A stretch of 64,000 nt of DNA from Anaerolineaceae bacterium (GCA_002702705.1 PABH01000019.1:55192-119191), one strand, 5' to 3'. Positions 39,850 through 58,760 are shown, counted from the stretch's first letter. A program made the numbers and translations. Notes: a model not told the origin generated them from the sequence alone.

Positions 39850-42800
39850 ATGCGTTTCTCCGCAGGTCGCCGTATTTTTAATGTTATTGTTTTATTAATG
39901 TTTATTTTAAGTTTGTTTAGTTTTCCCACAGCGCCTGTTTCCGCAGAGCCGGTAGAGAGACCGCTGGCTCTTGATACTCCTCCAATGATTTCTTTACTAA
40001 CCCCGGGATCCGTTTTGATTGGTGAAGACTTAGATTTCACGGTTACCTTTAATAACAATGGAGATTCACCAGGTTATGGACCGTATATTGATGTTTTTAT
40101 TGACCGAACCGGGGTTGATGGGATCTATCCTGGAACTGGATTAACAGACCCAACAGATCTATTCGATGGGTTAGCCGCTGGCGGTGTCAATGACTTTTCT
40201 GTTGAGTACAATGGGGTTTCTATCAATTCCAATGATTTATTTTTTATTGAATTTCTCCCAGGTACTGGATCTGATTCGGGGCGAGTTGTTGCGACCCATC
40301 CGCTTTTAAGAGACCTTGCGGGTAATTATGTAACTGTTTATGGTGATGATTACGGTTATGAAGCAGGCGATGTTTTGGTCGTTGTGAGACTACCTTTTGG
40401 TAGTTTTGTTCCTGATCAACCAGCAATTGATATTGATATTTCCACATCCATGAGTAATTGGGCTGATCTTGGAACACCATTAAGCATTTCTGCACGTGGT
40501 GGGTATCAGTTCGGATCAACTGCAACCGATGATTGGTGCTGTGATAATCAGTTGGATCTGGTTAGTTTTCCTGTAACAGGAAATGTTATTCCGACTCTCG
40601 TTACTTTCGCAAAAACAAATTTTGCGTCTGAGGCTGAAACTGCAACCGGTCCTAATTTTGAACAGGATTATGAAATTTCCATCACGGTGGCAGACGGACA
40701 AACGATTACAGATTTTAATTTGGTCGATGAGCTAGATGATAATGTTTATTATGTTGGCCCATTAAGTTTTACCGGATCATCCCCCTCCTGTACACCTCCT
40801 GCTACTAGTCCAGGAGGAACCATCAACTGTACTTATTTGTCTTTGAGCGGAACTTCGACGATCAGTTTTCCTTTTTACATACCACGAATAAACAGTGGTC
40901 TTTCTGATGTACTCAATCCAAGCACTGGTGACGATTCATCATCTTGTAACCAGGCTGGTGGTCTGGGAACCTGGGTGTCGATTGATCCACGGGATATCGC
41001 AGAAGATGATAATGTACGTGTGAACTTAAACATCGGAGATGATGGTCTTGAGTCGACTTGTGAAGATACTTTAGCAGACAAATCAATTACAATTCAAAAA
41101 TCCAATACGATCGCTGTTAATGCAGGCGCAGCCGGTGCAAGTCCAAGTGATATTGTGCGCTATACACTTAATTTCCAAATATCCGATTATTTTGCTTTTG
41201 AGGATATCGTCGTAACAGATGTTTTGAGTGATGGACAGCATTTTTATCCTGGAAATCCTCCCACTTTATCCATTAACGGCAATAGTTTTGATTTAACTGC
41301 TTCAGCCATTGCTCCAGAGAATGTAGATATAGTATGTAAATACACAGGTGCTTTAGACGATGATACCAATTGTACCGAACTAGATCTAGATTCAAGTGGG
41401 GAAACCAGGCTCGTGTTTAATGTATCCAGTGAAATTATCTCAAAAGGGCAGCTAACCGGAAATATGGTGGGTGGCTGTGTAGAACCAACTGGCACGGGTG
41501 TTTTTCCTCCGAATTGTAATACGAGTGATTCGGATGGATATAATGATGGGGCTACTACCGGTACCATCACATATTACGCTTCCATTTTAGAAAATTTCAC
41601 AGACGTCTATCCTTCAGGTGATCCTTCAGTCGATCAAGGAGATACGCTTTCAAATACTGTGTTAGTGACAGGGCAGTTGCTGGATGTTTCTGATTTATCT
41701 TCGACTGCAAATAGCGAACTAGATAATAGTGCTTCCGAGTTATCTATTGCTCGTGGTTCTCTAACAAAATCAATATATGCGATAAATGGAGAAACACCAG
41801 AAGAGCCAGCAAAAATTACTGTGGGTGATGAAGTAACCTACCGGATTCAATACCAATTACAAACCAATGATATAGAAAATCTGGTTTTTACCGATTATTT
41901 TCCACTCCCTATTTTTAATGTAGGAGCAACTTGGGCTTTCGATGATACGAAAAATACTGGTGTCACAGATGTTCCTGCTCCTGGAACAGTAAAATTAGGA
42001 AGTGCTGATACTTTTTATGAATTGTATCGTACTGATCCTGACTTAGACCCTATCACAGGCTTTGGTATCACATCTGATATAGCAGCAAATTCAGTACGTG
42101 TGAGCTTTGGAGATTTTGATTCAAGTTCTGATCTCAATCCAAAAAATATTGATTTATTATTTACCGTTGAAGTGATTGATGCCCAATTTGCTGATGGTTT
42201 ATATTTTACAAACCAAGCACAGGTTGAAGAAAGTTCCACAGGGTTAAGCCCTGAATCTGCCAGTTCAATTGTCCAGATTCAATTTACATCTCCAATTCTT
42301 ACAACTTCAAAATCTGTTGTAGCAACCGATGGAAATGGAACCGTTACAACTGATGTAATGGGAGTTATCTGGTCAGCCCCGACTACAGCTGGTGTTTATC
42401 CTGGCGCTCGTTGGGCAGGAGACATTGCTGACATTGACTCCGTTTCAAATAATATTATAAATGCTGATGCAGGTGATTTGGTGACCTTCGCAATCGTCAT
42501 TCAAAATACAGGGAGTGGTATTAGTGGTGCCTTCGATATTGATATTTTAGATTCATTGGACTTAACCTATTTTGAGTATCCTGAACCTGGGGATATTCAT
42601 TTGCAAATTTATTATGGGGATGGATCAGGACCAATTGCATATGTGGGTTCGATTGACGATTTTATTGATGATACGAGTGATGCATTAGACGCTGCCAGTG
42701 GCATCCGTTTAGTGGACCCGACTCCCACTGAAGGTGTTTGTCAGGCTCATGACCCCAATAGTTTAAACGACACCATTGTGATCACCTATGATTTAAGGTT

Positions 42801-45800
42801 AAAATCCACAGTGGAAGCTGGTGAAATTTATACAAATAGCGGCACAATAATTCATTATGCTGGCCAGGAAGGTGGAACGAATTTAGTTCCTGACCCCAAT
42901 CCAACGGATGATTCTACGGTTACCATCAGTCAGCCTGAAATTTCCAAATCTTTTATCAGCACAGGTATCATCACACCTGGGACGAATAATGATAATACCC
43001 ATGCTGTTATTGGTGAGATTGTTACATATCAACTGGTAGTGACCGTTCCGGAAGGAACCACACCCAATGCTCAGATTATTGATACGATGAGCGCTGGTTT
43101 AGCCTTTGTTGATATTAACAGTGTGGTATCCGATACAAATGTGGAGTCTGCTAATCTAATTGGCACGGGGGTTACTCCAGCAAATGTAACAGTTAGCAGT
43201 ACGAATGGGGGCACTGGCAACCGACTGACGTTTAATTTTGGAACGATTACCAACAATAATACAAACAATGGCACAGATAACACAATTACCATTGAGTACG
43301 ACACTGTGGTGTTAAATGACATTAATAATCAAACCAACACTACTCTGGGGAATATTGCATACTTTACCTGGGGCAGTGACGGCAGTATCAATGACAGCAG
43401 TGACCAAATTACTGTGATTGAACCCGATTTATCGATTACCAAGATGGCACAACGATTGTTGCCCACAGCTGGTGGAGCATCCGTTGATGCGGATGATACG
43501 GTTGAATATACAATTTCTATTTCAAATAGTTCTGGTGTGGATGCTTTTGATGTAACGATTAGTGACACTTTTCCGAGTTATTTAGATCCCGCAACACTCT
43601 TGATTACTGGTGTGAATGATAGTGGATCAATCCTCGATACGGATGATTTTGACATAACCGGTAATGTTCTTTCCACATTAACTAATTTTGATATGTTAAT
43701 TGCAAATTCTCGAACAGTGTCGTTAACCATTACTGGTGTTGTTATTGACACAATTACACCTACTCGAACAATTACCAATACGGCTCGGGTTTCCTGGAGT
43801 AGTTTGGATGGTGATATTACTGACAGATCAACCTATAACACCAACTCCGATGAACGAACTGGTGCAGATGGACCCGGAACCGGATTAAACAATTATGCTA
43901 AAAACAGTTTAGCTGCTAATGTTTCCGTGCCTGCTTTATCCGGTGCAAAACTGTTTGTTACCTCTTCAGAAGCGGGAACTTCAAATACGTCTAATCCACC
44001 TCGTTTAACGATTGGTGAAATTGTTCGATATCGATTGTACGCTTTAGTTCCAGAGGGATTATCTACAGATCTATCTTTGTTTGACAGACTGCCCAATGGC
44101 TTGCAATTTATCAATGATGGTCAGGTAAAAGCAGCATTTGTCTCCACAGGAACTGCAAGTAATACATTTACATCGTCGACAATCGATGTAAGTACAAACC
44201 CGACAATAGAAATTACAGGAAGTGCAATTGATTTAATTTCATTACCATCGGGAAGTATTGTCTTTACATTACCGGATTCAGCAATCTCTAGATTGCCAGA
44301 TAGTAATGATGATACATATGGAAATGGGACAGATATTTATTTCAAATTTGGTAATATTTCCAATCTTGATGATGACGCAGACAATGAGTATATTGTTGTT
44401 GAATTTAATGCACTCGTGTTAAATGTAAATGGAAATCAAGGTTATAACAATAGTAACGGAGCCAGTATTGATACCAACCTGGATAATAATTTCCAAGGAA
44501 TCCGGAATACAAGCGGTACCCAGATCATTGATTTTACCTCATCCAATATGCGAACTCGGATTGCCGAACCCGCGATTACAAACCTTTCGAAGTCTGTTTC
44601 CCCATCTGGTGGGGATGCCGGCAATACCGTTTCTTATGCGGTTACTTTCTCAAATGCGAGTGGGGTGAATGCCTCACCTGCCTACAATGTGGAATTTACA
44701 GACACAGTACCAGCGAAGATGGAAAATGTATCACTTCCACCTACTGTGACGAGTGCCTGTGCAATTGGTGCAGATCCATCTGCTTCATCTGGGAATGCTA
44801 TTAATGTCAGTTTTACCGAACTCCCGGTAGGATGTGCTGTTACGATTGCCTACACAGCACAATTAACAACGGCCGTCATCCCGAATGAAATCTTAACCAA
44901 TAGTGCCAAAGTCACGTACACTAGTTTACCGGGCAGTAATGGAACTCCCTCAAACCCAACAGGGAGTGCCAATACAGGAACCCCGGGAGATGCTGATGGT
45001 GAACGTATTGATGGTTCTACTTTAAATGATTATGAAGATACCGACAGCGTTGATGTGACCGTAACCCCAATCCAACCAGTTAAATCATTGGTTAGTTCTA
45101 CCGATCTAAATACCATTGATCCTAACTTGACGATTGGTGAAACAGCTCGCTTCCGGATGGAAATATTAATTGGAGAAGGTTCTTCCCCAATTTTTATTGT
45201 CACTGATAACTTGCCAAGTGGCTTTGAATATACTGGGAACGCTACAATGGCATTTGTCGCATCTGGAAATACGATCACTTCCGACAATGCCGATATTGGT
45301 AATTCGCCTTGGGTTATTGGGGATGAAACAACCATAGATAGTATTACACCAACTTTTGATGTGCCCGCAAGTGCAATCAATGCAGGTCCTTTTACGAATG
45401 GAATGGATCCTGTATTCAACTTTAGCAATCTAACGAATGCGGAAACCGACACTGATGATGAATTTATTGTGGTTGAATTTGATGCAGTTGTTCTGAATGT
45501 TAGTGGAAATCAGGCTGTCGGTCCTCAAACCCAACTTGACAATACGTTCACGGTTTCAATTGACAGCGTAAATCGTGGTACATCAAATACAATTTCAACG
45601 TATGTTGTAGAACCACAGATTACAACTACAAAAGATGTTTCACTCAGTAGCGGTATGGCTTATGAAGCCGGTTCCGTGGTTGAATATAGTTTATCTTATG
45701 AAAATACCGGTTCATCCACAGCTTACGATGTGACCGTGGTAGATGATTTACCACCGTTTTTAACGTATGATGATGCCAGCATTTCTTGTACGATCAATGG

Positions 45801-48800
45801 GGGATCAGTTGACACGACAATTACACCGACATTGATGGATGCGACAGATCCTGCTCATGATTATTATCAGTTAGCGATCAATAGTCAAACAGAAGGCGAT
45901 TGGGGTATCCCGGTTGGGCAATCACTGGATTGTACCTTTACCGCCACAATCCAAACTTCGGTTTACACGGACGCTACTTACACCAATACCACTGATGCCG
46001 ATTGGAGTTCGTTTGACGGAACGGATAACACTGAAGACCGCAATTATGATGGCGGTAGCAACGGTTACGATACAGGTACCGATTACAATATTGATGTAGA
46101 CCAAGATACGGATAACGCTGAATTTGATATCCTTACCCCAACTATCGTAAAAACGGTTAATAAAACGGATGCGACCATTGGTGAAGTAGTTCGATATACC
46201 ATCACAATGACAAGTCCTTTAGGTACACTTTATGACTGGGTTGTTACCGATTCTCTACCGGCCGGTTTGATTTTTGCCGGGAATATTATAGAAACTGGAT
46301 TTGACTTCCCGGATCCTACAATTTCTTCCCCCAATGATGGTACAACCGCGGTGACACTTGAATGGGATATGAGTGGTGCGGAAGTTACATCAAACACAAT
46401 GTCCATTGCATTTGACGTGATCGTTGCAAACAGCGTGGATGGGAGTTCTGCTTACATCAATGTCAATGGCGATGATCCAAACAATAATGTGGAAATGGCT
46501 TATACAGATATTTCTGGTTCCACTCAAACGATTTCGGATGATGAAAGCTTTAATGTTATCGAACCTGAACTTCAGGTGGATAAAAACTTTACACCAAACC
46601 CAGTTGGATTAGGCCAAACTGCAACCTACACCATTAATCTTTCTCACACCGCCGCCAGTTCCACAAACGCGATGGATATTACCATCACGGATGTGATTCC
46701 GAGTGGTTTGACGTATGAAGTTGCGACTATTGGCGGAAGTTGTACCAGTGGTACTTTAACCCCAAGTGATGCAGGGTCACCAACCTTAACCTGGACGGTA
46801 GATAACCTACCCGTTGGAGAAACCTGTACATTAACCTATCAGGTCACCGTGGATGATAATTCTCTGGGTGAGATTTTAACCAACAGCGTTACGGGTGGTT
46901 ATTCCACCATTTCCGGCACCCCAACCCCGGATGAAGAACGGGATTACACCCTCAGTACCGATGTGGATCTGGAAATCACAGGTCCTGATCTGTCGATCAC
47001 AAAAGATGATGGTGTGATCGAAACAATACCAGGTTCTACCCTGACCTATACGCTTTCTTATGAAAATCATGGTAATGGGCCAGCAACCGGTGTTGTTATT
47101 ACGGAAACGGTTCCCAATAATGCAACCTTTACCACCACAGGCAGCACAGCAGGCTGGAGCTGCAGCGACGGGGCAGGCGCGGGGACGACTTGTACCTTAC
47201 CGATTGGAAACCTTGCCGCAGGTGCTACCGGTTCCGCAACGTTTGTGGTGATTGTTGATTCGAGTGTACCTGCAGATGTCACTCAAATCGTTAACGATGT
47301 ATCCATTGCGGGTAATGAAACCGAACCCACCCCGGATGACAACCCAAATTCTGATTCAGACACGGATACCTTAACCGCCGCAGTAGATTTGACCCTAACC
47401 AAGATTGATGATGTCGCCGATGGCGATTCTGTCAATCCGGGTGATACGATTATCTACACTTTAACCTACGACAATATTGGTAATCGTGATGCTACCGGTG
47501 TTGAGATTGTTGATGATGTTCCGGCAAATACAACTTTTACCACCACGGGCAGCACAGCAGGCTGGAGTTGTTCCCCGGACAGTAGCGCTGGTTCAACCTG
47601 TACCTTTGTGATCGGTGATGTTGATGTGAATGATCCTGCCGGCACGGTATACTTTGCTGTTGTGGTTGATGACCCATTAGCCAGTGGTGTGACTGAGATT
47701 TTGAACGCGGCTACTATTGGTGGTAATGAAACAGAATTGGTTACAACCAATAACACGGATGATGAAACTACCCCTGTTATTGCCGAGCCAAACTTAACCA
47801 TCACCAAAGTAGCCGATGGAACCCAAATCGTAACAGGTGGCACGATTGTGTATACCATCACTTATGATAACAATGGAGATCAAACCGCAACAGGTGTGGT
47901 CATTACCGAAACGGTTCCAGCAAATACGACCTTTACGACCACAGGCAGTGATCCACGTTGGAGTTGCAGCGATGGTGATGTGGCTGGGACGGAGTGCACA
48001 GTCACAATCGGTACACTTTCCGTTGGCGGAGGTCTGAGTGACCCGATTGCTTTTGCTGTTGTTGTGAATGACACTGTTCCTGCTGGGGTCGAAAATATTT
48101 ACAATTTGGTAGAAATTACTGACGACGGATTAAATAGTGAAGACGGTTTACCAAAAACAGATAATGATGACGAAGAGACACTATTACTTGCCGCTCCCGA
48201 TTTGAATATCGTCAAGGACGATGGTGTTGAAATCATACAAGCTGGACAGAACCTGACCTATACCATTACCTATAATAATGTAGGTGATCAAGATGCGACC
48301 GGTGTGGTAATCACGGATACAGTGCCCCTCTTTACAACCTATAATTCAGAAGCAACCCCCGGTTGGGTTTGTGTTCCAGATGAAACTGCAGGCTCATTGT
48401 GTACCTACACCATTGGCGATTTAGCCGCTGGCGCTACAGGTCAGGTAAGTTTTGCAGTCGATGTTGATGATCCAATTGACGCCTCCATTGATGAAATTTA
48501 CAATTTTGTAACTATCAATGATGATGGCGAAAACGGTGATGACCTGACCGAAGATAACCAGGATGATGAAATTACTCCAGTGGATGCCCTGCCGGACCTT
48601 ACGATCATCAAGAACGACCGCGATGTAACTGCTGTTCCAGGTGATTCGATTCAGTATGGCCTGGCGTATGAAAATGTCGGTCAGCAGAATGCAACGGGTG
48701 TGGTTATTACGGAAACGGTTCCGGGTTACACAACTTATGACGCGGTGAATAGTAACCCAGCTTGGGTTTGTGATGATATCACCGCTGGTTCAACGTGTAC

Positions 48801-50853
48801 ATTTGCGGTGGGTGATTTGAATGCCGGTGATTCAGGTAGTGTTTTGTTTGCTGTCCTGGTTGAAAACCCACTGACAGCTGGTGTTGAATCGATCCTGAAC
48901 AATGTTTCGATTGAAGATGATGGTACAAATGGTGAGGATCCAACGCCGGAAAATAATGTTGATGATGAAGAAACACCGGTGGATGCAATATCCGACTTGA
49001 CCATCACTAAAGATGATGGTGTGGTACAGGTTACCCCAGGAGAAGAATTAACTTATACGATCGTCGTTGCAAATGTAGGCACCCAATCCGCGACGGGGGT
49101 AGTGGTGACGGATACTTTGCCGATTGGTGTAGTGTTTGTTTCTGCCAGTGATGGTGGCGTGTATGATGACAACACTCGAGAGATTATTTGGAATTTGGGA
49201 GAATTAGCTGGAGGTGGTGAAATCACGCTGACCGTTGAAATTTCCGTGGAGGATCCGTTCACTGGTGTCAATCCGGAAATTGTGAATGAAGTTATCGTAG
49301 AAGACGACGGCAGCAACGGTGTTGATCCAACCCCGGAAAATAATGAAGACAGTGATCGTGATTTGATTGGTGACAGCGCGAAGGTTATCAGTGGTACCAA
49401 CCAAATACACACGACTGGTTTGGATGTGGCAGTAGGTGAGGTTGTAACTTATACAGTTACTTTGGATATTGCCCCTGGTTTGGTTGAAGATTTAGTATTT
49501 ACGGATATTCTGGATCAAGGTATGGCCTTCGTTGGTTGTAATCAGATTACTACCGATCCTGCTGATGTATTAACCTTAGAACCTGGTTATACCTTATCCG
49601 GTTTGTGTACAATGGCAGCCATTTCGCAGTATCCTGTAACCAGCACTAATGTAACAGACAGTGGCCGCCAGATGATAATCAACTTTGGCGATGTGACCAA
49701 CATCTCCGCTGCGGAGGAGGATATCACATTAACCATTGAATACGATGTGGTGGTACTAAATACAGAAGCCAATGTGGATGGCCAGACCTTGGGTAACCAG
49801 GCTGACTGGACTTGGGTAGGTGGTTCGTTAGAAGCTGAAGCCAGCCCTGTTACGATTGTGGAACCAGATTTGGTAATCACAAAATCTGTAACACCTGAAA
49901 CAGCATACAACAATCAGACGGTGACCTTCACGGTAACTTTAAATCACACCGAAGATAGTAATTCAGATGCGTTTAATCTGGCAATATCGGATACTCTTCC
50001 AGAAACATTAACCTATGTTCCGGGCAGTCTGGTGTTTGTCAGTGGACAGGTGCCGACTTTGATCAATGATTTGAATGCACCGATTTTACGGGTAGGTTGG
50101 GATATTTTTACACAAACAACCGAACCGACTGTGTTGAGCTATCAGGCACGAATTACCAAAGCCAATCCAGGTTCAAAAATTGAAAACACCGTCACCATGG
50201 AATGGACAAGTTTACCTGGTGATGTGCTTACACCGCAATCACCATACAACCAAACATCGGTTGAACGATCCTATACTCCGGGTTCGAATGTGGATGTATA
50301 TGGAGTCTCAGCGAATGCGCTTATCAATATCCCGCAACTCCCGGATACAGGTTTTGCACCTGGTGTCCGCACCATTTTGCCTCAACAACCGGAGAACCTG
50401 GTTTACCAAGCAATCGATGATCTGCGATTTGCCATTCCGAAACAAAACCTTGATCTGCCTATAGTTGGTGTGCCGTTGGCAACTGATGGATGGGATCTAA
50501 CTTGGTTAAGTTCACAGGTGGGATACTTGGAAGGTACTGCTTACCCGACTTGGGATGGAAACACTGGGTTAACCGCCCATGTTTACAATGCAGATGGTAC
50601 ACCCGGACCATTTGTGAACTTGCATCTCCTGCGTTGGGGTGATAAGGTAGAAGTGACCGCATTTGGACAGGTGTTCACCTATGAAGTTCGCAGTGTTGAA
50701 CGAGTAAGTCCGAATGATCTCTCGGTACTGCATCATGAAGATCGCTCCTGGTTGACATTGATAACTTGCCAGAGCTTCGATGAAACCAAGGGTAGTTACA
50801 CCTGGCGTGTGGTTGTACGGGCTGTGTTGGTTTCGGTAGAACCAATAAATTGA
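39850..50853 (+). CDS. Giant secreted surface protein (3667 aa): signal peptide, pilin-like and DUF11-type Ig-fold modules, LPDTG motif, C-terminal sortase domain
   Basis: GGGAGG RBS. Signal peptide MRFSAGRRIFNVIVLLMFILSLFSFPTAPVSA. A single uninterrupted ORF of 11 kb with Thr/Asp/Asn/Gly-rich beta-type composition. Details are in the sub-features. Confidence 0.9.
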   Translation: MRFSAGRRIFNVIVLLMFILSLFSFPTAPVSAEPVERPLALDTPPMISLLTPGSVLIGEDLDFTVTFNNNGDSPGYGPYIDVFIDRTGVDGIYPGTGLTDPTDLFDGLAAGGVNDFSVEYNGVSINSNDLFFIEFLPGTGSDSGRVVATHPLLRDLAGNYVTVYGDDYGYEAGDVLVVVRLPFGSFVPDQPAIDIDISTSMSNWADLGTPLSISARGGYQFGSTATDDWCCDNQLDLVSFPVTGNVIPTLVTFAKTNFASEAETATGPNFEQDYEISITVADGQTITDFNLVDELDDNVYYVGPLSFTGSSPSCTPPATSPGGTINCTYLSLSGTSTISFPFYIPRINSGLSDVLNPSTGDDSSSCNQAGGLGTWVSIDPRDIAEDDNVRVNLNIGDDGLESTCEDTLADKSITIQKSNTIAVNAGAAGASPSDIVRYTLNFQISDYFAFEDIVVTDVLSDGQHFYPGNPPTLSINGNSFDLTASAIAPENVDIVCKYTGALDDDTNCTELDLDSSGETRLVFNVSSEIISKGQLTGNMVGGCVEPTGTGVFPPNCNTSDSDGYNDGATTGTITYYASILENFTDVYPSGDPSVDQGDTLSNTVLVTGQLLDVSDLSSTANSELDNSASELSIARGSLTKSIYAINGETPEEPAKITVGDEVTYRIQYQLQTNDIENLVFTDYFPLPIFNVGATWAFDDTKNTGVTDVPAPGTVKLGSADTFYELYRTDPDLDPITGFGITSDIAANSVRVSFGDFDSSSDLNPKNIDLLFTVEVIDAQFADGLYFTNQAQVEESSTGLSPESASSIVQIQFTSPILTTSKSVVATDGNGTVTTDVMGVIWSAPTTAGVYPGARWAGDIADIDSVSNNIINADAGDLVTFAIVIQNTGSGISGAFDIDILDSLDLTYFEYPEPGDIHLQIYYGDGSGPIAYVGSIDDFIDDTSDALDAASGIRLVDPTPTEGVCQAHDPNSLNDTIVITYDLRLKSTVEAGEIYTNSGTIIHYAGQEGGTNLVPDPNPTDDSTVTISQPEISKSFISTGIITPGTNNDNTHAVIGEIVTYQLVVTVPEGTTPNAQIIDTMSAGLAFVDINSVVSDTNVESANLIGTGVTPANVTVSSTNGGTGNRLTFNFGTITNNNTNNGTDNTITIEYDTVVLNDINNQTNTTLGNIAYFTWGSDGSINDSSDQITVIEPDLSITKMAQRLLPTAGGASVDADDTVEYTISISNSSGVDAFDVTISDTFPSYLDPATLLITGVNDSGSILDTDDFDITGNVLSTLTNFDMLIANSRTVSLTITGVVIDTITPTRTITNTARVSWSSLDGDITDRSTYNTNSDERTGADGPGTGLNNYAKNSLAANVSVPALSGAKLFVTSSEAGTSNTSNPPRLTIGEIVRYRLYALVPEGLSTDLSLFDRLPNGLQFINDGQVKAAFVSTGTASNTFTSSTIDVSTNPTIEITGSAIDLISLPSGSIVFTLPDSAISRLPDSNDDTYGNGTDIYFKFGNISNLDDDADNEYIVVEFNALVLNVNGNQGYNNSNGASIDTNLDNNFQGIRNTSGTQIIDFTSSNMRTRIAEPAITNLSKSVSPSGGDAGNTVSYAVTFSNASGVNASPAYNVEFTDTVPAKMENVSLPPTVTSACAIGADPSASSGNAINVSFTELPVGCAVTIAYTAQLTTAVIPNEILTNSAKVTYTSLPGSNGTPSNPTGSANTGTPGDADGERIDGSTLNDYEDTDSVDVTVTPIQPVKSLVSSTDLNTIDPNLTIGETARFRMEILIGEGSSPIFIVTDNLPSGFEYTGNATMAFVASGNTITSDNADIGNSPWVIGDETTIDSITPTFDVPASAINAGPFTNGMDPVFNFSNLTNAETDTDDEFIVVEFDAVVLNVSGNQAVGPQTQLDNTFTVSIDSVNRGTSNTISTYVVEPQITTTKDVSLSSGMAYEAGSVVEYSLSYENTGSSTAYDVTVVDDLPPFLTYDDASISCTINGGSVDTTITPTLMDATDPAHDYYQLAINSQTEGDWGIPVGQSLDCTFTATIQTSVYTDATYTNTTDADWSSFDGTDNTEDRNYDGGSNGYDTGTDYNIDVDQDTDNAEFDILTPTIVKTVNKTDATIGEVVRYTITMTSPLGTLYDWVVTDSLPAGLIFAGNIIETGFDFPDPTISSPNDGTTAVTLEWDMSGAEVTSNTMSIAFDVIVANSVDGSSAYINVNGDDPNNNVEMAYTDISGSTQTISDDESFNVIEPELQVDKNFTPNPVGLGQTATYTINLSHTAASSTNAMDITITDVIPSGLTYEVATIGGSCTSGTLTPSDAGSPTLTWTVDNLPVGETCTLTYQVTVDDNSLGEILTNSVTGGYSTISGTPTPDEERDYTLSTDVDLEITGPDLSITKDDGVIETIPGSTLTYTLSYENHGNGPATGVVITETVPNNATFTTTGSTAGWSCSDGAGAGTTCTLPIGNLAAGATGSATFVVIVDSSVPADVTQIVNDVSIAGNETEPTPDDNPNSDSDTDTLTAAVDLTLTKIDDVADGDSVNPGDTIIYTLTYDNIGNRDATGVEIVDDVPANTTFTTTGSTAGWSCSPDSSAGSTCTFVIGDVDVNDPAGTVYFAVVVDDPLASGVTEILNAATIGGNETELVTTNNTDDETTPVIAEPNLTITKVADGTQIVTGGTIVYTITYDNNGDQTATGVVITETVPANTTFTTTGSDPRWSCSDGDVAGTECTVTIGTLSVGGGLSDPIAFAVVVNDTVPAGVENIYNLVEITDDGLNSEDGLPKTDNDDEETLLLAAPDLNIVKDDGVEIIQAGQNLTYTITYNNVGDQDATGVVITDTVPLFTTYNSEATPGWVCVPDETAGSLCTYTIGDLAAGATGQVSFAVDVDDPIDASIDEIYNFVTINDDGENGDDLTEDNQDDEITPVDALPDLTIIKNDRDVTAVPGDSIQYGLAYENVGQQNATGVVITETVPGYTTYDAVNSNPAWVCDDITAGSTCTFAVGDLNAGDSGSVLFAVLVENPLTAGVESILNNVSIEDDGTNGEDPTPENNVDDEETPVDAISDLTITKDDGVVQVTPGEELTYTIVVANVGTQSATGVVVTDTLPIGVVFVSASDGGVYDDNTREIIWNLGELAGGGEITLTVEISVEDPFTGVNPEIVNEVIVEDDGSNGVDPTPENNEDSDRDLIGDSAKVISGTNQIHTTGLDVAVGEVVTYTVTLDIAPGLVEDLVFTDILDQGMAFVGCNQITTDPADVLTLEPGYTLSGLCTMAAISQYPVTSTNVTDSGRQMIINFGDVTNISAAEEDITLTIEYDVVVLNTEANVDGQTLGNQADWTWVGGSLEAEASPVTIVEPDLVITKSVTPETAYNNQTVTFTVTLNHTEDSNSDAFNLAISDTLPETLTYVPGSLVFVSGQVPTLINDLNAPILRVGWDIFTQTTEPTVLSYQARITKANPGSKIENTVTMEWTSLPGDVLTPQSPYNQTSVERSYTPGSNVDVYGVSANALINIPQLPDTGFAPGVRTILPQQPENLVYQAIDDLRFAIPKQNLDLPIVGVPLATDGWDLTWLSSQVGYLEGTAYPTWDGNTGLTAHVYNADGTPGPFVNLHLLRWGDKVEVTAFGQVFTYEVRSVERVSPNDLSVLHHEDRSWLTLITCQSFDETKGSYTWRVVVRAVLVSVEPIN
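46981..49380 (+). repeat. Six tandem ~133-aa (~400-nt) DUF11-type repeats inside the giant gene
   Basis: Units start near 46984, 47377, 47783, 48191, 48586 and 48985, each opening with (P)DL(S/T/N)I(T/V/I)K. The core is LTYT(L/I).Y.N.G...ATGVVIT(E/D)TVP..T(F/Y). Five units carry a W.C...(A)G(S/T).C Cys pair. Nucleotide identity is locally high, for example 32 nt with one mismatch at 47128-47159 versus 47536-47567. Confidence 0.8.
50338..50352 (+). other. LPDTG sortase-recognition-type motif (aa 3497-3501)
   Basis: The context is INIPQLPDTGFAPGVRTILPQQPENLVY. No hydrophobic helix or basic tail follows. Confidence 0.7.
50416..50850 (+). other. Sortase (C60 transpeptidase)-like catalytic domain fused in frame to the giant protein
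   Basis: LRFAIPKQNLDLPIVGV; GNTGLTAHV (His 3577, nt 50578-50580); RSWLTLITC (Cys 3640, nt 50767-50769); WRVVVRAV (Arg 3657, nt 50818-50820). The order and spacing match the sortase His-Cys-Arg triad. Confidence 0.75.
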
Positions 50854-54877: not shown

Positions 54878-55720
54878 ATGGAAAACCAATATATAAATGT
54901 GGACGGTGTGAACACCCATTATTTAAAAGCTGGTAGAGGTGAGCGGACTGTTGTGTTGTTGCATGGTGGGGGATTGGATAATGCTGCCCTATCATGGGAA
55001 TTAATAATCCCCGATTTGGCAGAAACACATACTGTCATCGCTTTGGATTGGCCAGGTTATGGCAAAAGCGACACACCGGACGAAAAGTTCGTGGTTTCCT
55101 ACTATGTTCAGTTTTTTGAAAAATTTGTAAATTTACTTGGTTTAACCACGGTCAGCCTAGTAGGTATTTCTATGGGTGGGGCTATTGCAATTGGTTTTAC
55201 CTTAAACAACCCAACGTTTGTTGATTCTTTAATTTTGGTGGATAGTTATGGCTTGCAGAAAAAGGCTCCATTCCATAAATTAAGTTTTTTGTATGTCAAC
55301 TTTCCTGGTGTGCGGGAATTAACCTGGTGGATGGTACGCCAACGCTGGATGATTAAGTATTCTCTTGGATCAATTCTTAAACGCCAGGGCTCAATCACAG
55401 AGGAATTAGTGGAACGTGTCCACCAACAGGCTTTACAGCCCGGAGCGGGGCAGGCATTTGCTGATTTACAAGATGGTGATATAACCTGGTCCGGGTTAAA
55501 AACGGTCTTTCTGGATCGGTTGCCGGAAATCCAGCAAAAAACGTTGGTTATTCATGGGGAAAAAGATACGCTGGTTCCTTTAACTGCTTCGCAAGAAGCT
55601 GCCCGACTGATTCCAAATGCAGAATTTACCATTATGGAAGGCTGTGGGCATTGGCCACAGCGGGATAATCCAGAACTGTTTAATCAGCTTGTGAGGGAGT
55701 TTCTACGTAGAGAAAACTAA
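54878..55720 (+). CDS. Alpha/beta hydrolase
   Basis: VVLLHGGG, nucleophile elbow GISMGG, C-terminal GCGHWPQRDNPE. Confidence 0.85.
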   Translation: MENQYINVDGVNTHYLKAGRGERTVVLLHGGGLDNAALSWELIIPDLAETHTVIALDWPGYGKSDTPDEKFVVSYYVQFFEKFVNLLGLTTVSLVGISMGGAIAIGFTLNNPTFVDSLILVDSYGLQKKAPFHKLSFLYVNFPGVRELTWWMVRQRWMIKYSLGSILKRQGSITEELVERVHQQALQPGAGQAFADLQDGDITWSGLKTVFLDRLPEIQQKTLVIHGEKDTLVPLTASQEAARLIPNAEFTIMEGCGHWPQRDNPELFNQLVREFLRREN

Positions 55721-55861
55721 CCACGAAAAAGCATGAACAATTACTAAAACTTTTTAAATCCTCTCTTAAATACGGTTTGCACCTCACCAGAGGAAAAAAG
55801 TTTTCCCTGCGCCTTGTTGATTTACTGTGGTTTGACTGTAAAAAAATTTTTTTACTATAAA

Positions 55862-56416
55862 CTATTCACTTAATTTGTCTTTCCTTTTTCCGCCATTTTC
55901 CAAAAAATAAAATAGCAGCAAGGTTAAAACCACAAATAATGCTACAACCAGAAGGGGATGAACGCCTAACAGGGTCGGCAGGGTGACATTGCCCAGATTA
56001 GCCACTTTTGCGATGGGTGGAAAAACACTTTTATAAGTGAAACCAAATAAAAGTGCACCGGTTAACAAACCCCCTAATCCGGAAAGTAAGTAATCTAATT
56101 TGCCTTCTCCAGCGCCCGCTACGACGGTACCTGGACAGTAACCCGCTAGTGCCATACCCACGCCAAATATTAACCCACCAAACAGGTTGCCTAAGATATA
56201 AGTTCCGGGAATGTTAGGAAACTGAATCGAGCCGCTGGTTTGTAGAGTATATAACCCGATCATTGAAACTACAAGAGCTGTCATCATAAATTTAATGACC
56301 GTCAGATTGGTAAAACGGAACACGCCGACAATATTACCGTATTTGGTAAGGCCACCTTTTACCAAGACAAAACCAAACACAATTCCTAAAAGAATGGGTG
56401 ACAGATAAGTGCTCAT
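55862..56416 (-). CDS. YeeE/YedE-family sulfur-compound transporter half-protein
   Basis: 184 aa of hydrophobic helices with the characteristic GYCPG motif. The start abuts the stop of the upstream gene (TAAATG). Confidence 0.75.
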   Translation of the reverse strand: MSTYLSPILLGIVFGFVLVKGGLTKYGNIVGVFRFTNLTVIKFMMTALVVSMIGLYTLQTSGSIQFPNIPGTYILGNLFGGLIFGVGMALAGYCPGTVVAGAGEGKLDYLLSGLGGLLTGALLFGFTYKSVFPPIAKVANLGNVTLPTLLGVHPLLVVALFVVLTLLLFYFLENGGKRKDKLSE

Positions 56417-57586
56417 TTAATACCTCCTACGGAAAACAATGATGGCGGTGATAATGCCAGAAATAAACATACCAGCCATGAATAGGAAGGCGGATGGTGC
56501 CAGCAGCATACCGCCAGAGATAGCCAGGCCGCTGGTACAGCCGCCTGCTATGCTTGCACCATATTGAATGATCACTGCGCTGATAAAACCAATCAGGAAG
56601 CGTTTTAAACGAGATGTTCCAAAAATTTTCACCCAAACTGGATCTTGATTCCAGCGGATTTTAAAGGTGCCGCTTGAGAGGGATGCTAAAAATCCACCAA
56701 CAAACATACCAATCAGAATTAATACTTCCCAATCAAAGGCGGGCGGCATCACAAAGCGGAAGTATATATTTTTTTCGATGGTTTGTGGTGCAAGCCGGTG
56801 TACCAATGCACTTGCTGTTACAGCGATTCCACCAGAGGCTGTCATCAGATGATTGGCAACCACCACTGCCAGGATGCCAACAATACCAAGCCCGACCCCA
56901 GCAATATAGGGTGACCAATTTTCTTCTCGAAAGCGAATCCATAACCAGTTTAAGAAGCTAGAATTCGTTTGTTTGTTTTGGAGTTTTCTTTCATTTTTAA
57001 TAACCAAACCACCGCCTGTTACGGTTACAGCGGCTAATAACAACCCTGCTGCCAAATTAGCGGAGGAGTTATTGTTTGTATTTAATGGCGTGGATGGTTC
57101 TGTTTCAACTTCAGGTTCAAGTGGTGCAGTGACACCAAAAGGAGCGGGGGCCAAAAAACCATTGTTAAATGGTGATGAACTAGCAGAAACCGCCATATTT
57201 TCAGCGTCTTTCAAAAAACTGAGATCAGTGATATTCTTTTGAACTGCATAAGGCGCAAATCGGTCTTCCAAATCGTCACAATGGCAGGCCACACAATTTC
57301 CGGCCATTAATTTTAAATCCTTTGTAGTTCCTACATGGGCTGTTGCCATATCCGGTGCCATACGGCTGCCGCCATGACACTCAGCACAGGAATCGATAAT
57401 GATATGATCCGTGTGCCAATCACCGCGTGTATTGACAGGGTACTGTGATTGTACTTCATGGCAGGTTTTGCAGGTAGAAGGGGTTTTACATTGAGCGAAA
57501 ACTTCTCTGGTGGGAGTAAAAACCAGGAACCCAATCAGAACGAAAAAGGTCATGCTAATGGATAAAAAGAAAGACTGTGGTTTCAA
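56417..57586 (-). CDS. Triheme c-type cytochrome domain fused to a YeeE/YedE-family transporter half
   Basis: Probable TTG start at 57586, 7 nt after AAGGAGG, giving signal/anchor MKPQSFFLSISMTFFVLIGFLVF. Three CxxCH motifs (CKTCH, CAECH, CVACH; nt 57281-57472), a Pro/Thr/Asn linker, a TM helix, then the YeeE/YedE motif GGCTSG. Confidence 0.7.
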   Translation of the reverse strand: MKPQSFFLSISMTFFVLIGFLVFTPTREVFAQCKTPSTCKTCHEVQSQYPVNTRGDWHTDHIIIDSCAECHGGSRMAPDMATAHVGTTKDLKLMAGNCVACHCDDLEDRFAPYAVQKNITDLSFLKDAENMAVSASSSPFNNGFLAPAPFGVTAPLEPEVETEPSTPLNTNNNSSANLAAGLLLAAVTVTGGGLVIKNERKLQNKQTNSSFLNWLWIRFREENWSPYIAGVGLGIVGILAVVVANHLMTASGGIAVTASALVHRLAPQTIEKNIYFRFVMPPAFDWEVLILIGMFVGGFLASLSSGTFKIRWNQDPVWVKIFGTSRLKRFLIGFISAVIIQYGASIAGGCTSGLAISGGMLLAPSAFLFMAGMFISGIITAIIVFRRRY

Positions 57587-57701
57587 AGCGAGACCTCCTT
57601 TATACAGATAATGGATTTCTCCATTATACTCCGATTGTGCTTTTTTGCACTTTTGAGCAGAAAAAGGCATTGGTATAATAAACCTAAAAACGGATGGGTT
57701 T

Positions 57702-58760
57702 ATGAAATACAAACAAACCATATTTCAATTGTTAATACTATTGACATGCCTGGTCACTTTGTTAGGATTGGGTTTTGTGGGATACAAATATATTCGTCTT
57801 CGAAATGCTTATTTTCGTTTGGAAGGAATTTATTTAACCGAGATTAACGAAAATGTAAGTAGTAATATAGTAAATAAGATGCGAAGCGAATTATTTGAAA
57901 AAAACACCATTATAACGAACGATTTTTCATTTGATTATGAACAATTCCCATCTCCCGATCAAGTTATTCTAAATAAGGAGCCACTAATACCTGTCAGTGC
58001 GGATCAGACAGTGAAAATCCTCACTTTTGGTCATATTTATGCAAATGACCAAGCGGTTATTCCCCCTGCGGTATTATCTGCTAACTTGAGTTTGATCAAT
58101 AACGAACTCAAGCCTGATTTGGTTGTTTTGATGGGTGACCTCGTATACAAACCCTCACCGGACACGTTTTCCGCTTTAAAAGAAGGATTGATAGATCCAT
58201 TGTCCATGCCGGTTTTAAACGTCCCTGGCAACCATGATTTTTATGCAGGCAGACAGCTTTACCAAGAATATTTTGGACAGACCTTTTATAGTTTTACCCA
58301 TGGACCAGCCCAGTTGATCTTTTTGGATACAGAAATTGGTAATTGTTCGATCCTTGGCAAACAAAAAGAGATGTTGGATAGGGCACTTGAGCAAGCATCG
58401 GAATCTGAAGAAATACAGTATGTGTTTATCTTCATGCACAAAGTTCTTTTTCAGAATCTAAATTTACCTGGGGTGGGCAACCTAACCACAAACCATGAAT
58501 ATTGTGATCTTTTTGGCAGTAATTTTGAAGAGATAATTAACAAACAGTTGATTCCTGTTTCTGAAAACAAACCTGTTTATGTTTTCGCAGGAGATGTAGG
58601 TAAATCCGGAAATGAATTTTCCTACTTCACTAGCCAATTGGAAGGAACTCAGGTTTACCTAAATACAGCTGGAATTGGTGAACAGCCCGCTGATGCAGCT
58701 CTCTTGATCACATACGATCAAGCAGGGGTGTCCTTAACAAAGGTGCCATTAACTCCCTAA
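57702..58760 (+). CDS. Membrane-anchored calcineurin-like metallophosphoesterase
   Basis: N-terminal TM helix. Motifs VVLMGDLVY, VPGNHDF and FIFMHK. Confidence 0.75.
   Translation: MKYKQTIFQLLILLTCLVTLLGLGFVGYKYIRLRNAYFRLEGIYLTEINENVSSNIVNKMRSELFEKNTIITNDFSFDYEQFPSPDQVILNKEPLIPVSADQTVKILTFGHIYANDQAVIPPAVLSANLSLINNELKPDLVVLMGDLVYKPSPDTFSALKEGLIDPLSMPVLNVPGNHDFYAGRQLYQEYFGQTFYSFTHGPAQLIFLDTEIGNCSILGKQKEMLDRALEQASESEEIQYVFIFMHKVLFQNLNLPGVGNLTTNHEYCDLFGSNFEEIINKQLIPVSENKPVYVFAGDVGKSGNEFSYFTSQLEGTQVYLNTAGIGEQPADAALLITYDQAGVSLTKVPLTP

Follow-up and report, generated by a model that had tools for sequence, protein, structure and literature searches.

Among the closest described systems, TsuA/YeeE with TsuB/YeeD (Spirochaeta thermophila and E. 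coli; PDB 6LEO and 8J4C) represents the Sulf_transp fold family to which both genes analysed here belong. TsuA has its N-terminus outside and its C-terminus inside the cell, with helix H7 reversing the orientation of its two halves, and its Cys293 forms the outer thiosulfate site (PMC7449682). Views differ on how the conserved pore cysteines of YeeE/YedE proteins work: in the sole mechanistic model, hydrogen bonds pass thiosulfate along them, and other authors have proposed zero-valent sulfur or selenium as the cargo. For a split form of the channel, PmpA/PmpB, a heterodimer has been proposed (Li et al. 2024, PMC11582611). Among cytochromes, MccSep reduces polysulfide and selenite with heme, cysteine and selenocysteine, and triheme cytochrome c7 has polysulfide reductase activity (PMC13510729).

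The window, i.e., the whole stretch of 64,000 nucleotides that was analysed (Anaerolineaceae bacterium, GCA_002702705.1, PABH01000019.1:55192-119191), carries two abutting genes, here called A and B, in which a triheme cytochrome c is joined to one half of a split YeeE/YedE channel. All features located below lie on the minus strand. An earlier note on this DNA had not recognised the combination as a described system; likewise, we found no paper within the searchable literature that joins YeeE/YedE to a cytochrome c module. Databases annotate these proteins only as 'YeeE/YedE family protein'.

Gene A and its triheme cytochrome module

Gene A (56417..57586) encodes a 389-aa fusion, delimited by the ORF list, its translation and a Pfam Sulf_transp match. 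Its N-terminal signal peptide is followed by a triheme cytochrome c module, a linker and a membrane helix, and a PmpA-like YeeE half makes up the C-terminal part; the gene ends with a TAA codon at 56417-56419. The earlier note had read a signal, three CxxCH motifs, a Pro/Thr/Asn linker, a helix and a YeeE domain with GGCTSG in this gene, and each of these elements was recovered. In its longest ORF form (56417-57721) the gene would run into a divergent gene beginning at 57702. The TTG codon at 57586-57584 is the better start, since a Shine-Dalgarno sequence, AAGGAGG (57594..57600, read from the sequence), lies 7 nt upstream and the N-termini of homologues align to the TTG at 57586. A search of 5.8 billion proteins returned a protein identical to the gene A product (cluster P0003). 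A promoter and terminator scan of 55600-57950 yielded counts not above those of shuffled sequence.

The predicted Sec signal peptide (residues 1-31; 57494..57586) has K2 in its n-region, an 18-residue hydrophobic core (hydropathy peak 2.47) and a V-F-A site. In the family alignment its end follows a 'VxAQC' consensus, where 90% or more of sequences have A31 and Q32 and all have C33, and cleavage probably occurs just before Q32-C33. We also considered Cys33 as a lipoprotein anchor, and rejected it because the conserved Gln between the small residue and the Cys leaves no lipobox.

Residues 32-136 (57179..57493) form the triheme cytochrome c module, which is delimited by invariant motifs and ligand candidates and is predicted to be extracytoplasmic. 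Its heme-binding motifs, taken from the translation, are CKTCH (residues 39-43; 57458..57472), CAECH (residues 67-71; 57374..57388) and CVACH (residues 98-102; 57281..57295), together spanning 64 residues. The module belongs to a family of 646 representatives at 50% identity, with the signature AQC-x5-CxxCH-x13-WHxxH-x5-CxxCH-x12-AH-x13-CxxCH, which is retained in about 110-120 of 121 representatives. Invariant in 70 sequences are C33, C39, C42, H43, W57, H58, H61, C67, C70, H71, H84, C98, C101 and H102; Cys103, directly after the third heme motif, is not conserved. Beside the three CxxCH motifs, the invariant residues H58, H61, H84 and C33 are candidate axial ligands. The last of these (codon 57488..57490), an additional cysteine that would be the second residue of the mature protein, may bind a heme axially or carry substrate on its thiol, as suggested by analogy to the His/Cys hemes found in TsdA, SoxA, DsrJ and MccSep (PMC13510729). 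In AlphaFold models, pLDDT is 62-95 across the module and falls below 50, in both models, in the Pro/Thr/Asn/Ser-rich disordered tether that follows (residues 137-173; 57068..57178). This tether differs in length and sequence among homologues, and is very short in a GC-rich fused group.

The module was compared with several known cytochrome families. The gene A product matches Cytochrome c7 (PF14522) at 16.4 bits against a cut-off of 24.8, and weak Cytochrome_C7 matches were obtained for 24 of 46 family members (best E-value, 2.6e-5). In 10 of the 46, the NapC/NirT N-terminal region was weakly matched, over the N-terminal helix and the first two heme motifs. Membership of the NapC/NirT/NrfH group was nevertheless rejected on the scores (PF03264, 18.6-22.1 bits against 24.1; TIGR03153, 21.1 against 134), on the presence of three hemes, not four, and on the conserved AxA cleavage site. 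DsrJ, TsdA and SoxA were likewise considered, and NCBIfam and Pfam searches gave no match to them at E-values up to 0.01. A profile search of PDB sequences returned marginal matches only, to NrfA heme segments and c7 (E = 0.005-0.28). Foldseek comparisons with the PDB, using the full-length model and a heme-module model built from 46 sequences, yielded nothing below E = 5; as the same searches missed even TsuA, they permit no statement at the level of fold.

Maturation genes for such a protein are present in the genome. One operon of Ccm system I, with CcmE, F, H, G-like, A, B and C, lies at about 164.8-173.1 kb of contig C22, so that the c-type maturation genes on which the earlier note had made its reading depend are present as a full CcmABCEFGH set. 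The genome contains more than 15 multiheme ORFs.

A channel split between two genes

Downstream of the tether, gene A continues with a membrane helix (residues 174-204; 56975..57067; an AlphaFold helix with a hydropathy of 2.04), after which a conserved juxtamembrane NER(K/R) motif lies on the predicted cytoplasmic side; five K/R residues occur between positions 198 and 225. The PmpA-like half (residues 205-389; 56420..56974) corresponds to TsuA helices H8-H13 and matches PF04143 (Sulf_transp) at 82.7 bits, against a cut-off of 27, over profile positions 109-309 of 310. Gene B (55862..56416), which begins at a TAAATG junction in frame with gene A, encodes a PmpB-like half of 184 aa, which covers the equivalents of TsuA H1-H6 and adds an H7-like helix; it matches the same profile at 80.2 bits over positions 8-149. 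These scores bear out the proposal that the two genes encode a split YeeE/YedE pair, with A providing the C-terminal half and B the N-terminal half. Together they are the sole PF04143 matches in the genome.

Each half contributes one pore cysteine. In gene A this is Cys350 (codon 56537-56539), within GGCTSG at residues 348-353; in an alignment of the family profile with residues 230-330 of S. thermophila TsuA, GGC350 falls on AGGC293. In gene B it is Cys94 (codon 56135-56137), within GYCPG; phmmer aligned residues 8-171 to TsuA residues 6-179 (E = 8.5e-8), placing C94 on C91. In TsuA, C91 and C293 are essential and belong to the re-entrant loops LB and LD. The two are the only cysteines in the membrane part of A and B, and both are invariant in the family alignment except where selenocysteine replaces C94 in relatives. 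The halves score far below the NCBIfam cut-offs for TsuA (NF041049/NF052577: A, 28.6/22.3 bits and B, 44.7/43.7 bits, against 645/400) and for the YedE/FdhT selenium transporter (B, 40.1 bits against 350 for NF033796 and 20.9 against 200 for TIGR04112), which speaks against assigning a substrate.

The arrangement predicted for the pair, inverted four-helix halves with an odd helix between them, is compatible with the alignments, the helix count and the bias of K/R residues, which concentrate in the predicted cytoplasmic loops and tails of both proteins. The topology-reversing element would be the H7-like helix of gene B (about residues 143-171; 55904..55990; hydropathy peak 3.04), a segment that aligns to TsuA up to residue 179; the K/R-rich tail of the protein, ENGGKRKDKLSE, holds four K/R and is predicted to be cytoplasmic. 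The gene A helix at 174-204 is predicted to run from outside to inside. The triheme module would then lie outside the cell, as the earlier note had supposed, and this prediction draws on the alignment to the solved TsuA structure, the positive-inside rule and the AxA signal-peptidase site. A model in which A and B form one chain through the in-frame TAA was dropped: with the end of A in the cytoplasm and the start of B outside, a one-residue join would impose the wrong topology.

Relatives, genomic neighbours and selenocysteine

The 5.8-billion-protein search identified more than 100 full-length cluster representatives that share the fused architecture, all with three CxxCH motifs and GGCTSG, and most with CxxCH spacings of 28-29 and 31 residues. 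At 76 of 81 related loci, mostly from Anaerolineae, the triheme module either forms one protein with the PmpA-like half or is the product of the gene immediately upstream, and the PmpB-like half comes next at all 81. With so many fused clusters of fixed heme spacing, and with fusion or adjacency at 76 loci, the pairing of cytochrome and channel is not due to chance. Phylogenetic profiling, a check proposed in the earlier note, placed the fused forms in a clade of Chloroflexota and on separate long branches in Myxococcota and Symbiobacteriaceae; the fusion arose in at least two or three separate lineages. By the Rosetta-stone argument, the 76 loci and the fusions in separate lineages suggest that cytochrome and channel are functionally coupled.

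Where the two are unfused, the cytochrome is equipped with a separate membrane helix and 60-100 aa of cytoplasmic tail, and the membrane part of these separate heme proteins ends in the same helix and NERK/R motif. The cassette is patchily distributed, being absent from 17 of 17 genomes of the same genus, which marks it as accessory and perhaps confined to a narrow role. An outer membrane is often said to be lacking in Anaerolineae; c-type cytochromes would in that case have to be membrane-anchored anyway, and the fusion of adjacent genes could partly reflect the convenience of anchoring.

The surroundings of the cassette differ between clades. Of the unfused cassettes, 46 of 55 adjoin genes for a PhsA/PsrA-like molybdoenzyme, for Fe-S subunits together with NrfD or cytochrome b subunits, for ExtM- and ExtP/Q-like cytochromes, and for an ArsR-family regulator; these regulators weakly match the model of the sulfite/persulfide sensor BigR. 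The clustering with ExtM- and ExtP/Q-like proteins recalls MccSep/ExtKL. The clade of the window, which is fused and stand-alone, has no adjacent reductase and no conserved regulator, and the best match in the window's genome to the PhsA-like enzyme of the sister clade has 23-29% identity and is not an orthologue. The chalcogen context is therefore borrowed from the sister clade. Around the fused stand-alone relatives, the accessory genes reflect lineage synteny only (a helicase, a decarboxylase with a PuuR-like regulator, and formate-tetrahydrofolate ligase), and nothing among them is sulfur-related.

The TusA family (PF01206), a usual partner of such channels, is represented neither adjacent to A and B, as the earlier note had observed, nor anywhere in the 97%-complete genome; a control search with the same profile was positive in 10 of 14 reference genomes. 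Without a TusA-family gene, the TsuA-TsuB mode is not available to this organism.

At 62 of the 81 related loci, the gene B codon corresponding to C94 is an in-frame TGA, which we read as selenocysteine; read-through gives a full-length protein of ~185 aa. A SECIS-like hairpin lies 3' of the TGA in two registers with correlated codon switches, and Sec and Cys were exchanged at least eight times on the tree. The window's own gene B carries Cys at this G(Y/F)UPG position.

The earlier note had gone on to suggest that the heme module couples redox conversion of a sulfur or selenium species to its uptake. That proposal stays conditional, while gaining independent support from the synteny, the recurrent fusion, the pore selenocysteine of most relatives and their PhsA/PsrA-like and Ext-like neighbours. 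The conserved pairing, in turn, suggests that the channel performs redox chemistry on its cargo rather than plain transport.

Proposed mechanism and comparison with known systems

The reading that we favor, and to which we give about an even chance, is a heme-driven covalent-relay channel that would reduce or oxidise sulfur or selenium species as they cross the membrane. The channel half of A would combine with B in a TsuA-like pore of two inverted halves, in the PmpA/PmpB arrangement. Once the protein had been exported by Sec, cleaved before Q32-C33 and loaded with heme by the Ccm system, a small c7-like triheme cytochrome would be displayed on the outer face, tied by the linker and one membrane helix to the half that bears the outer pore cysteine, C350. 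A relay of thiols or selenols would run inward from C33 (external) through C350 (outer site) to C94 (mid-pore; Sec in most relatives), and would hold the sulfur or selenium species covalently or semi-covalently; the likeliest cargoes are polysulfide or zero-valent sulfur, thiosulfate/tetrathionate, or selenite. Docked on the pore, the hemes would give or take electrons to cleave or form S-S or S-Se bonds, so that redox conversion and membrane passage would be one coupled step. They would, in this genome, stand in for the cytoplasmic TusA/YeeD partner that TsuA requires, with electrons coming from, or going to, the organism's many other membrane and extracytoplasmic cytochromes.

Some points weigh against a coupled relay. 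The linker of ~37 residues is disordered and the pTM only 0.62, leaving docking of the module on the pore hypothetical, and the precedent for one-electron hemes reducing an in-pore thiol/selenol pair is only indirect. More tentatively, and with a clearly lower probability, the pore may be the catalytic core of a new membrane-embedded chalcogen oxidoreductase, or a DsbD-like conduit, rather than a passive channel, with an external triheme wire trading electrons with an in-membrane Cys-Cys (Cys-Sec in most relatives) pair. If true, the sulfur or selenium would be translocated in the very event that cleaves its bond, and a TusA-type acceptor would be dispensable.

It is unlikely that the complex moves no solute at all and serves as a transmembrane electron conduit, in which a DsbD-beta/CcdA-like Cys/Sec pore would link a cytoplasmic thiol reductant with the external hemes and, through thiol-disulfide or selenenylsulfide exchange, feed or drain extracytoplasmic redox chains. 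The re-entrant-loop cysteines of TsuA lie about 7 angstroms apart at its centre (PMC7449682), and their counterparts are the only membrane cysteines here. Selenocysteine at one of them in 62 of 81 loci is typical of redox catalysis, not of a passive channel, and the predicted outward position of the hemes, the lack of a TusA partner and the wealth of multiheme cytochromes would also suit a conduit. However, the family members characterised so far have been described as carrying solutes, namely thiosulfate, zero-valent sulfur and selenium (PMC11582611, PMC7449682), no conserved cytoplasmic thioredoxin-like gene accompanies the cassette at the related loci, and coupling of a two-electron thiol pair to one-electron hemes across a pore has no known precedent.

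We attach the same low probability to the fusion being incidental or organisational, joining a general anchored electron carrier to an ordinary importer or exporter of sulfur anions, with the hemes not acting on the cargo. The carrier could serve, for instance, the neighbouring PhsA-like reductase in relatives; there, the unfused cytochrome stands on its own helix and tail within clusters of reductase and cytochrome genes, and a long flexible tether would allow it to reach other partners. Yet the adjacency of cytochrome and channel extends to 14 stand-alone loci that have no reductase, fusion took place in more than one lineage, and the window's genome has no PhsA-like enzyme to be served. Moreover, the GC-rich fused forms have almost no tether, which would keep their hemes at the pore.

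Less probable again is operation in the oxidative or export direction, whereby the hemes would take electrons from reduced sulfur species that arrive through or onto the pore, for detoxification or as an electron-donor pathway, and not for uptake; examples would be a TsdA-like conversion of thiosulfate to tetrathionate, or the oxidation and export of sulfide or persulfide. The His/Cys-heme enzymes TsdA and SoxAX oxidise thiosulfate, as cited in PMC13510729 and PMC11582611, the invariant C33 could supply ligation of this type, and the BigR-like match of the relatives' regulators fits such a role. Against this, characterised YeeE-type proteins import their substrates (PMC11582611, PMC7449682). 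The adjacent molybdoenzymes of the relatives are, in addition, of the PhsA/PsrA reductase type, and no terminal acceptor is encoded nearby. The least probable alternative, raised as a second option in the earlier note and in our view very unlikely, is that the heme module senses redox state or a ligand such as sulfide and gates the channel without catalysis: the module is small and tethered, and membrane proteins with a fused heme-based sensor are familiar, but three close c-type hemes with candidate bis-His ligation are more like a c7-type electron wire, and the pore Sec and reductase neighbourhoods of the relatives point to turnover.

In light of the unsettled action of the pore cysteines, the fusion of pore and cytochrome, together with a pore Sec in most relatives, is comparative evidence that a YeeE/YedE pore can be redox-active, and the compact two-gene family allows this idea to be tested directly. 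Through the cassette family, YeeE-type channels become connected with PhsA/PsrA-like and Ext-like respiratory clusters. The family further points to a so far unstudied module for handling sulfur or selenium that is common in Anaerolineae of sludge, sediment and soil, organisms of whose sulfur and selenium physiology very little is known.

Of the known heme proteins, cytochrome c7 (the PpcA family) and NapC/NirT/NrfH likewise present a small heme module, with every match for which a bit score is available falling below the curated cut-off. In c7 the ligand histidines come in another order, and NapC/NrfH have four hemes and an uncleaved anchor, whereas gene A has three hemes and a conserved AxA site. 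DsrJ (of DsrMKJOP), TsdA and SoxA are membrane-associated or periplasmic sulfur cytochromes in which an extra conserved cysteine serves as a heme ligand; in gene A, ligation by cysteine is hypothetical. The pentaheme MccSep/ExtKL of Geobacter sulfurreducens (PMC13510729) brings hemes, a catalytic Cys and Sec to bear on polysulfide and selenite outside the cytoplasm. It does so, however, as a soluble periplasmic tetramer that unites all these parts in a single protein, whereas here a membrane pore contains the Cys/Sec pair and a separate, tethered module bears the hemes; MccSep and this cassette showed no sequence homology.

Among the channels, a catalogued YeeE/YedE selenoprotein form (GUxSG; PMC13188914) is of the same Pfam family and has Sec at a pore cysteine. 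In that form the Sec occupies the GGC(T/x)SG loop, at the C293-type position, whereas the relatives described here have it in the other half, within the G(Y/F)UPG loop at the C91-type position. PmpA/PmpB of Serratia sp. ATCC 39006 has the same order, with the gene for the C-terminal half first, that for the N-terminal half second and one cysteine in each. At about 130 aa, PmpA and PmpB each have four helices and lack the central helix; A and B are both longer, B having the H7-like fifth helix and A being preceded by a topology-setting helix and the heme module. A TusA-like protein, PmpC, accompanies PmpAB. With TsuA the cassette shares the two essential pore cysteines, C91 and C293, kept as C94 (B) and C350 (A), while an equivalent of TsuA C22 is absent. 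A conserved cytoplasmic loop, RW..D..W...FG, which TsuA does not have, is inserted here. Compared with TsuA, finally, the pore is split over two genes, the genome has no TusA/YeeD gene, and an external triheme cytochrome has been added.

Gene structure and predicted topology

Gene A, on the minus strand, has a longest ORF of 56417-57721. We prefer the TTG start at 57586, which the earlier note also used, because AAGGAGG lies 7 nt 5' of it, the N-termini of aligned homologues coincide with it, and the longest form would overlap the divergent neighbour that starts at 57702. The 389-aa product opens with a basic and then hydrophobic segment running to V-F-A/Q-C. Three heme motifs follow (CKTCH, residues 39-43; CAECH, 67-71; CVACH, 98-102), then a Pro/Thr/Asn/Ser-rich stretch (residues ~137-173) that is disordered in both AlphaFold models, a long helix (174-204) leading into KNERKLQNK, and a C-terminal polytopic domain that closes with GGCTSG...RRRY. 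Gene B (55862-56416, minus strand) encodes 184 aa with a GYCPG motif and starts at the TAAATG junction (56414-56419), where the two genes are in the same frame with TAA as sole separator and ATG immediately next. This shared frame looks accidental, as junctions in related loci vary between 4-nt overlaps and short gaps; a read-through product would be a topologically impossible join.

The earlier note had described two abutting ORFs encoding a triheme module and a split YeeE/YedE channel, and the ORF list, the translation and Pfam bear this out. The HMM search it proposed places both halves above the Sulf_transp cut-off, and by a wide margin, gene A covering profile positions 109-309 (second half) and gene B 8-149 (first half). 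By Pfam, the channel is assigned to the YeeE/YedE family, in the split PmpA/PmpB form described previously (PMC11582611). Matches of both products to the NCBIfam TsuA and YedE models fall far below the cut-offs, and these curated models rule out a TsuA or YedE orthologue.

In the solved TsuA of S. thermophila, the N-terminus is outside, the C-terminus is inside, and H7 flips H1-H6 relative to H8-H13; its cysteines lie at the outer thiosulfate site (C293), in the middle (C91) and on the inner side (C22) (PMC7449682). Gene B aligns with TsuA residues 6-179 (H1-H7), C94 falling on C91, which would put its N-terminus outside and its end inside, past a fifth, H7-like helix. The family profile of gene A aligns with residues 230-330, C350 falling on C293; its channel part would begin and end inside, so that helix 174-204 would run from outside to inside and the heme module is predicted to face outside. 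Charge bias agrees with this topology: in gene A, lysines and arginines number five each after helix 174-204 and in the 303-328 loop, and its C-terminal tail has three; the tail of gene B has four, its N-terminus and 57-73 loop none. In addition, the conserved V-x-A/Q-C is a classical signal-peptidase site, at which the precursor is presumably cleaved, and the window's genome carries CcmE, CcmF, CcmH, a CcmG-like thioredoxin, CcmA, CcmB and CcmC in a single operon. The earlier note had listed a cytoplasmic heme segment, a failed YeeE/YedE match and missing maturation genes as grounds for abandoning its reading; the heme segment is predicted to lie outside, the family match holds and the maturation genes are present.

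Two pieces make up the pore, which has no cysteines besides C350 on the outer side and C94 at the centre; the piece bearing C350 is tied to the external triheme module, in which a further cysteine (C33, the second residue of the predicted mature protein) is invariant. A cytoplasmic loop at residues 309-331 of gene A (56483-56551, minus strand) shows strong conservation (R311, W312, D315, W318, G323, R329). This loop is inserted relative to the solved TsuA, which lacks it, and is a candidate docking site for a cytoplasmic partner.

Distribution and history of the cassette

Each prokaryotic species was represented by one genome in a scan that yielded 214 loci; the best 80, plus one more, were examined. 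Nearly all of these 81 belong to Chloroflexota, class Anaerolineae (Anaerolineales, Ardenticatenaceae, Promineifilaceae and Caldilineaceae); the other carriers are a few Myxococcota, one Symbiobacteriaceae genome and one labelled Eisenbacteria. Of the 81, 76 have either a fusion of the triheme protein with the PmpA-like half or a separate triheme gene directly 5' of that half, and a PmpB-like half comes next in all 81. Fused forms are a minority (eight Chloroflexota, two Myxococcota-type, one Symbiobacteriaceae), to which a search of 5.8 billion proteins adds many GC-rich proteins, likewise fused. Where unfused, the heme protein (265-335 aa) shares signal peptide, hemes, linker, membrane helix and NER(K/R) with the fused form and then continues into a cytoplasmic tail of about 60-100 aa. 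This tail carries a conserved motif, YP..V..LLP...L.P.G..AL..LL (heme genes of loci L014-L086, e.g., L036:7959-8813); its only possible Pfam match is a weak PBP_N, in 2 of 46 members, and it is lost in fused forms, gene A included.

In the tree of PmpA-like halves, the window falls in a clade of 14 loci (support 100/98) that contains every Chloroflexota fused form and five unfused ones. The remaining fused forms lie elsewhere on long branches, so the fusion arose more than once. Distribution is patchy among the genus and family genomes compared: no heme-bearing form was found in the genomes of 17 other species from the window's genus, and the full-length fused form was found in two genomes of its family.

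More than 100 cluster representatives in the 5.8-billion-protein search share the fused layout of gene A, and all full-length ones retain three CxxCH motifs, spaced mostly by 28-29 and 31 residues, and GGCTSG. They form two size classes: (i) 375-420 aa with long linkers, 42-55% identical to the window's protein, and (ii) 330-365 aa, GC-rich, with almost no linker and 33-36% identity. A 70-sequence alignment shows no variation at C33, W57, H58, H61, H84 or any of the nine heme-motif residues. Searched against 1.84 billion proteins, a heme-module profile recovered 646 representatives (at 50% identity), and about 110-120 of 121 complete ones retain AQC-x5-CxxCH...WHxxH...CxxCH...AH...CxxCH. Judged by sequence, the cytochrome-channel combination is a conserved family and not a chance juxtaposition. 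Some relatives have a second, shorter triheme-plus-helix paralogue (177-191 aa), and locus L070 has an additional PmpA-like/PmpB-like pair (these copies lie at L029:485-1060, minus strand; L070:6820-7353, plus strand; and L070:2770-4626); a ~190-aa class was frequent in the global heme-module search.

Selenocysteine and genomic context

In 62 of the 81 loci, the PmpB-like gene has an in-frame TGA at the exact C94 position, within G(Y/F)-U-PG (e.g., L007:9412-9414 and L023:2355-2357). Gene callers split such genes into pieces of ~93 and ~75 aa, and read-through gives a protein of ~185 aa. From about +15 after the TGA there is a SECIS-like hairpin of 6 bp, GC-rich and with GG in its loop. It comes in two registers, between which a serine codon (AGC to TCC) and an Ala/Val codon switch in step. 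The tree intersperses selenocysteine and cysteine forms and implies eight or more changes between them. Gene B itself has TGT (Cys) at C94 and no hairpin; SelA and tRNA-Sec are present in its genome. Selenocysteine is known almost exclusively from redox-active sites, which argues that the pore residue at the C94 position is chemically active.

Flanking DNA was sufficient for 55 unfused cassettes, and 46 of these are followed by a Tat-signal molybdopterin oxidoreductase; its best match is the thiosulfate reductase PhsA (600 bits; cut-off, 694). The same clusters encode a DsrO/TtrB-like Fe-S subunit and an NrfD-type or cytochrome b561-type membrane subunit, many also an ExtM-like multiheme cytochrome, an ExtP/Q-like cytochrome b and a Rieske protein, and an ArsR-family regulator is usually upstream. 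None of the 11 fused loci has a PhsA-like reductase nearby, and their flanks share only lineage synteny. The window holds the stand-alone fused version of the cassette, since genes A and B are flanked by unrelated genes (alpha/beta hydrolase, PEP-utilising enzyme, metallophosphoesterase) and the PhsA-like enzyme has no orthologue in the genome. Nor was a TusA-family (PF01206) gene found in this 97%-complete genome (the control was positive in 10 of 14 reference genomes), which is unusual, as TusA is usually a central sulfur-relay hub.

The same genome encodes more than 15 ORFs with at least five CxxCH motifs. Heme-rich ORFs (24, 20, 15 and 12 motifs) cluster on two of its contigs (C51:6850-13198 and C12:30403-33605), those on C51 adjoining an ExtP/Q-like cytochrome b and a Rieske protein; these clusters look like an extracytoplasmic electron-transfer chain. 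Elsewhere in the window (39850-50853, plus strand) lies a 3667-aa DUF11-repeat surface protein with an LPDTG-like motif and, past it, a C-terminal sortase domain (PF04203, 83.6 bits), an adhesin-like giant carrying its own fused sortase.

Proposed mechanism and comparison with known systems

Direct adjacency or fusion of the genes, and the repeated fusion, argue in Rosetta-stone fashion that cytochrome and channel act together. The hemes could exchange electrons with cargo held on a C33/C350/C94 relay, and cleavage or formation of an S-S or S-Se bond would be coupled to membrane passage; we give an even chance to such coupling of heme redox conversion to passage through the pore. The PhsA/PsrA-like and Ext-like neighbours in sister clades would fit a chemistry centred on polysulfide, thiosulfate or selenite. 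The coupled reading is weakest (i) in the models, where the tether is long and disordered and docking of module to pore is putative, and (ii) in its chalcogen context, drawn by analogy from a sister clade and not from the window's own. That the complex is a DsbD-type electron conduit seems unlikely, and equally so that the fusion, for all its recurrence, is incidental or serves for anchoring. Operation in reverse, oxidative or as export, is less probable again, and a sensor role for the heme module is the most doubtful.

The channel family is known; its conserved cytochrome partner, and their fusion, are undescribed in the searchable full-text literature, where we found no paper linking YeeE/YedE to a cytochrome c module. 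Databases name the homologues only "YeeE/YedE family protein", "hypothetical protein" or "cytochrome c553". The heme module matched no curated cytochrome family above threshold, and structure searches against the PDB returned no match to it; weak c7 matches occur in 24 of 46 members. Whereas the TsuA-TsuB mode is defined by a TusA partner, the window's system is without one. A YeeE/YedE selenoprotein has been catalogued with selenocysteine in the other loop, GUxSG (PMC13188914), in contrast to the G(Y/F)UPG loop of the relatives described here. The closest chemical precedent for the proposed heme, cysteine and selenocysteine chemistry is MccSep, in which hemes, a heme-ligating cysteine and selenocysteine reduce polysulfide and, less well, selenite; according to the same paper, triheme c7 has polysulfide reductase activity (PMC13510729).
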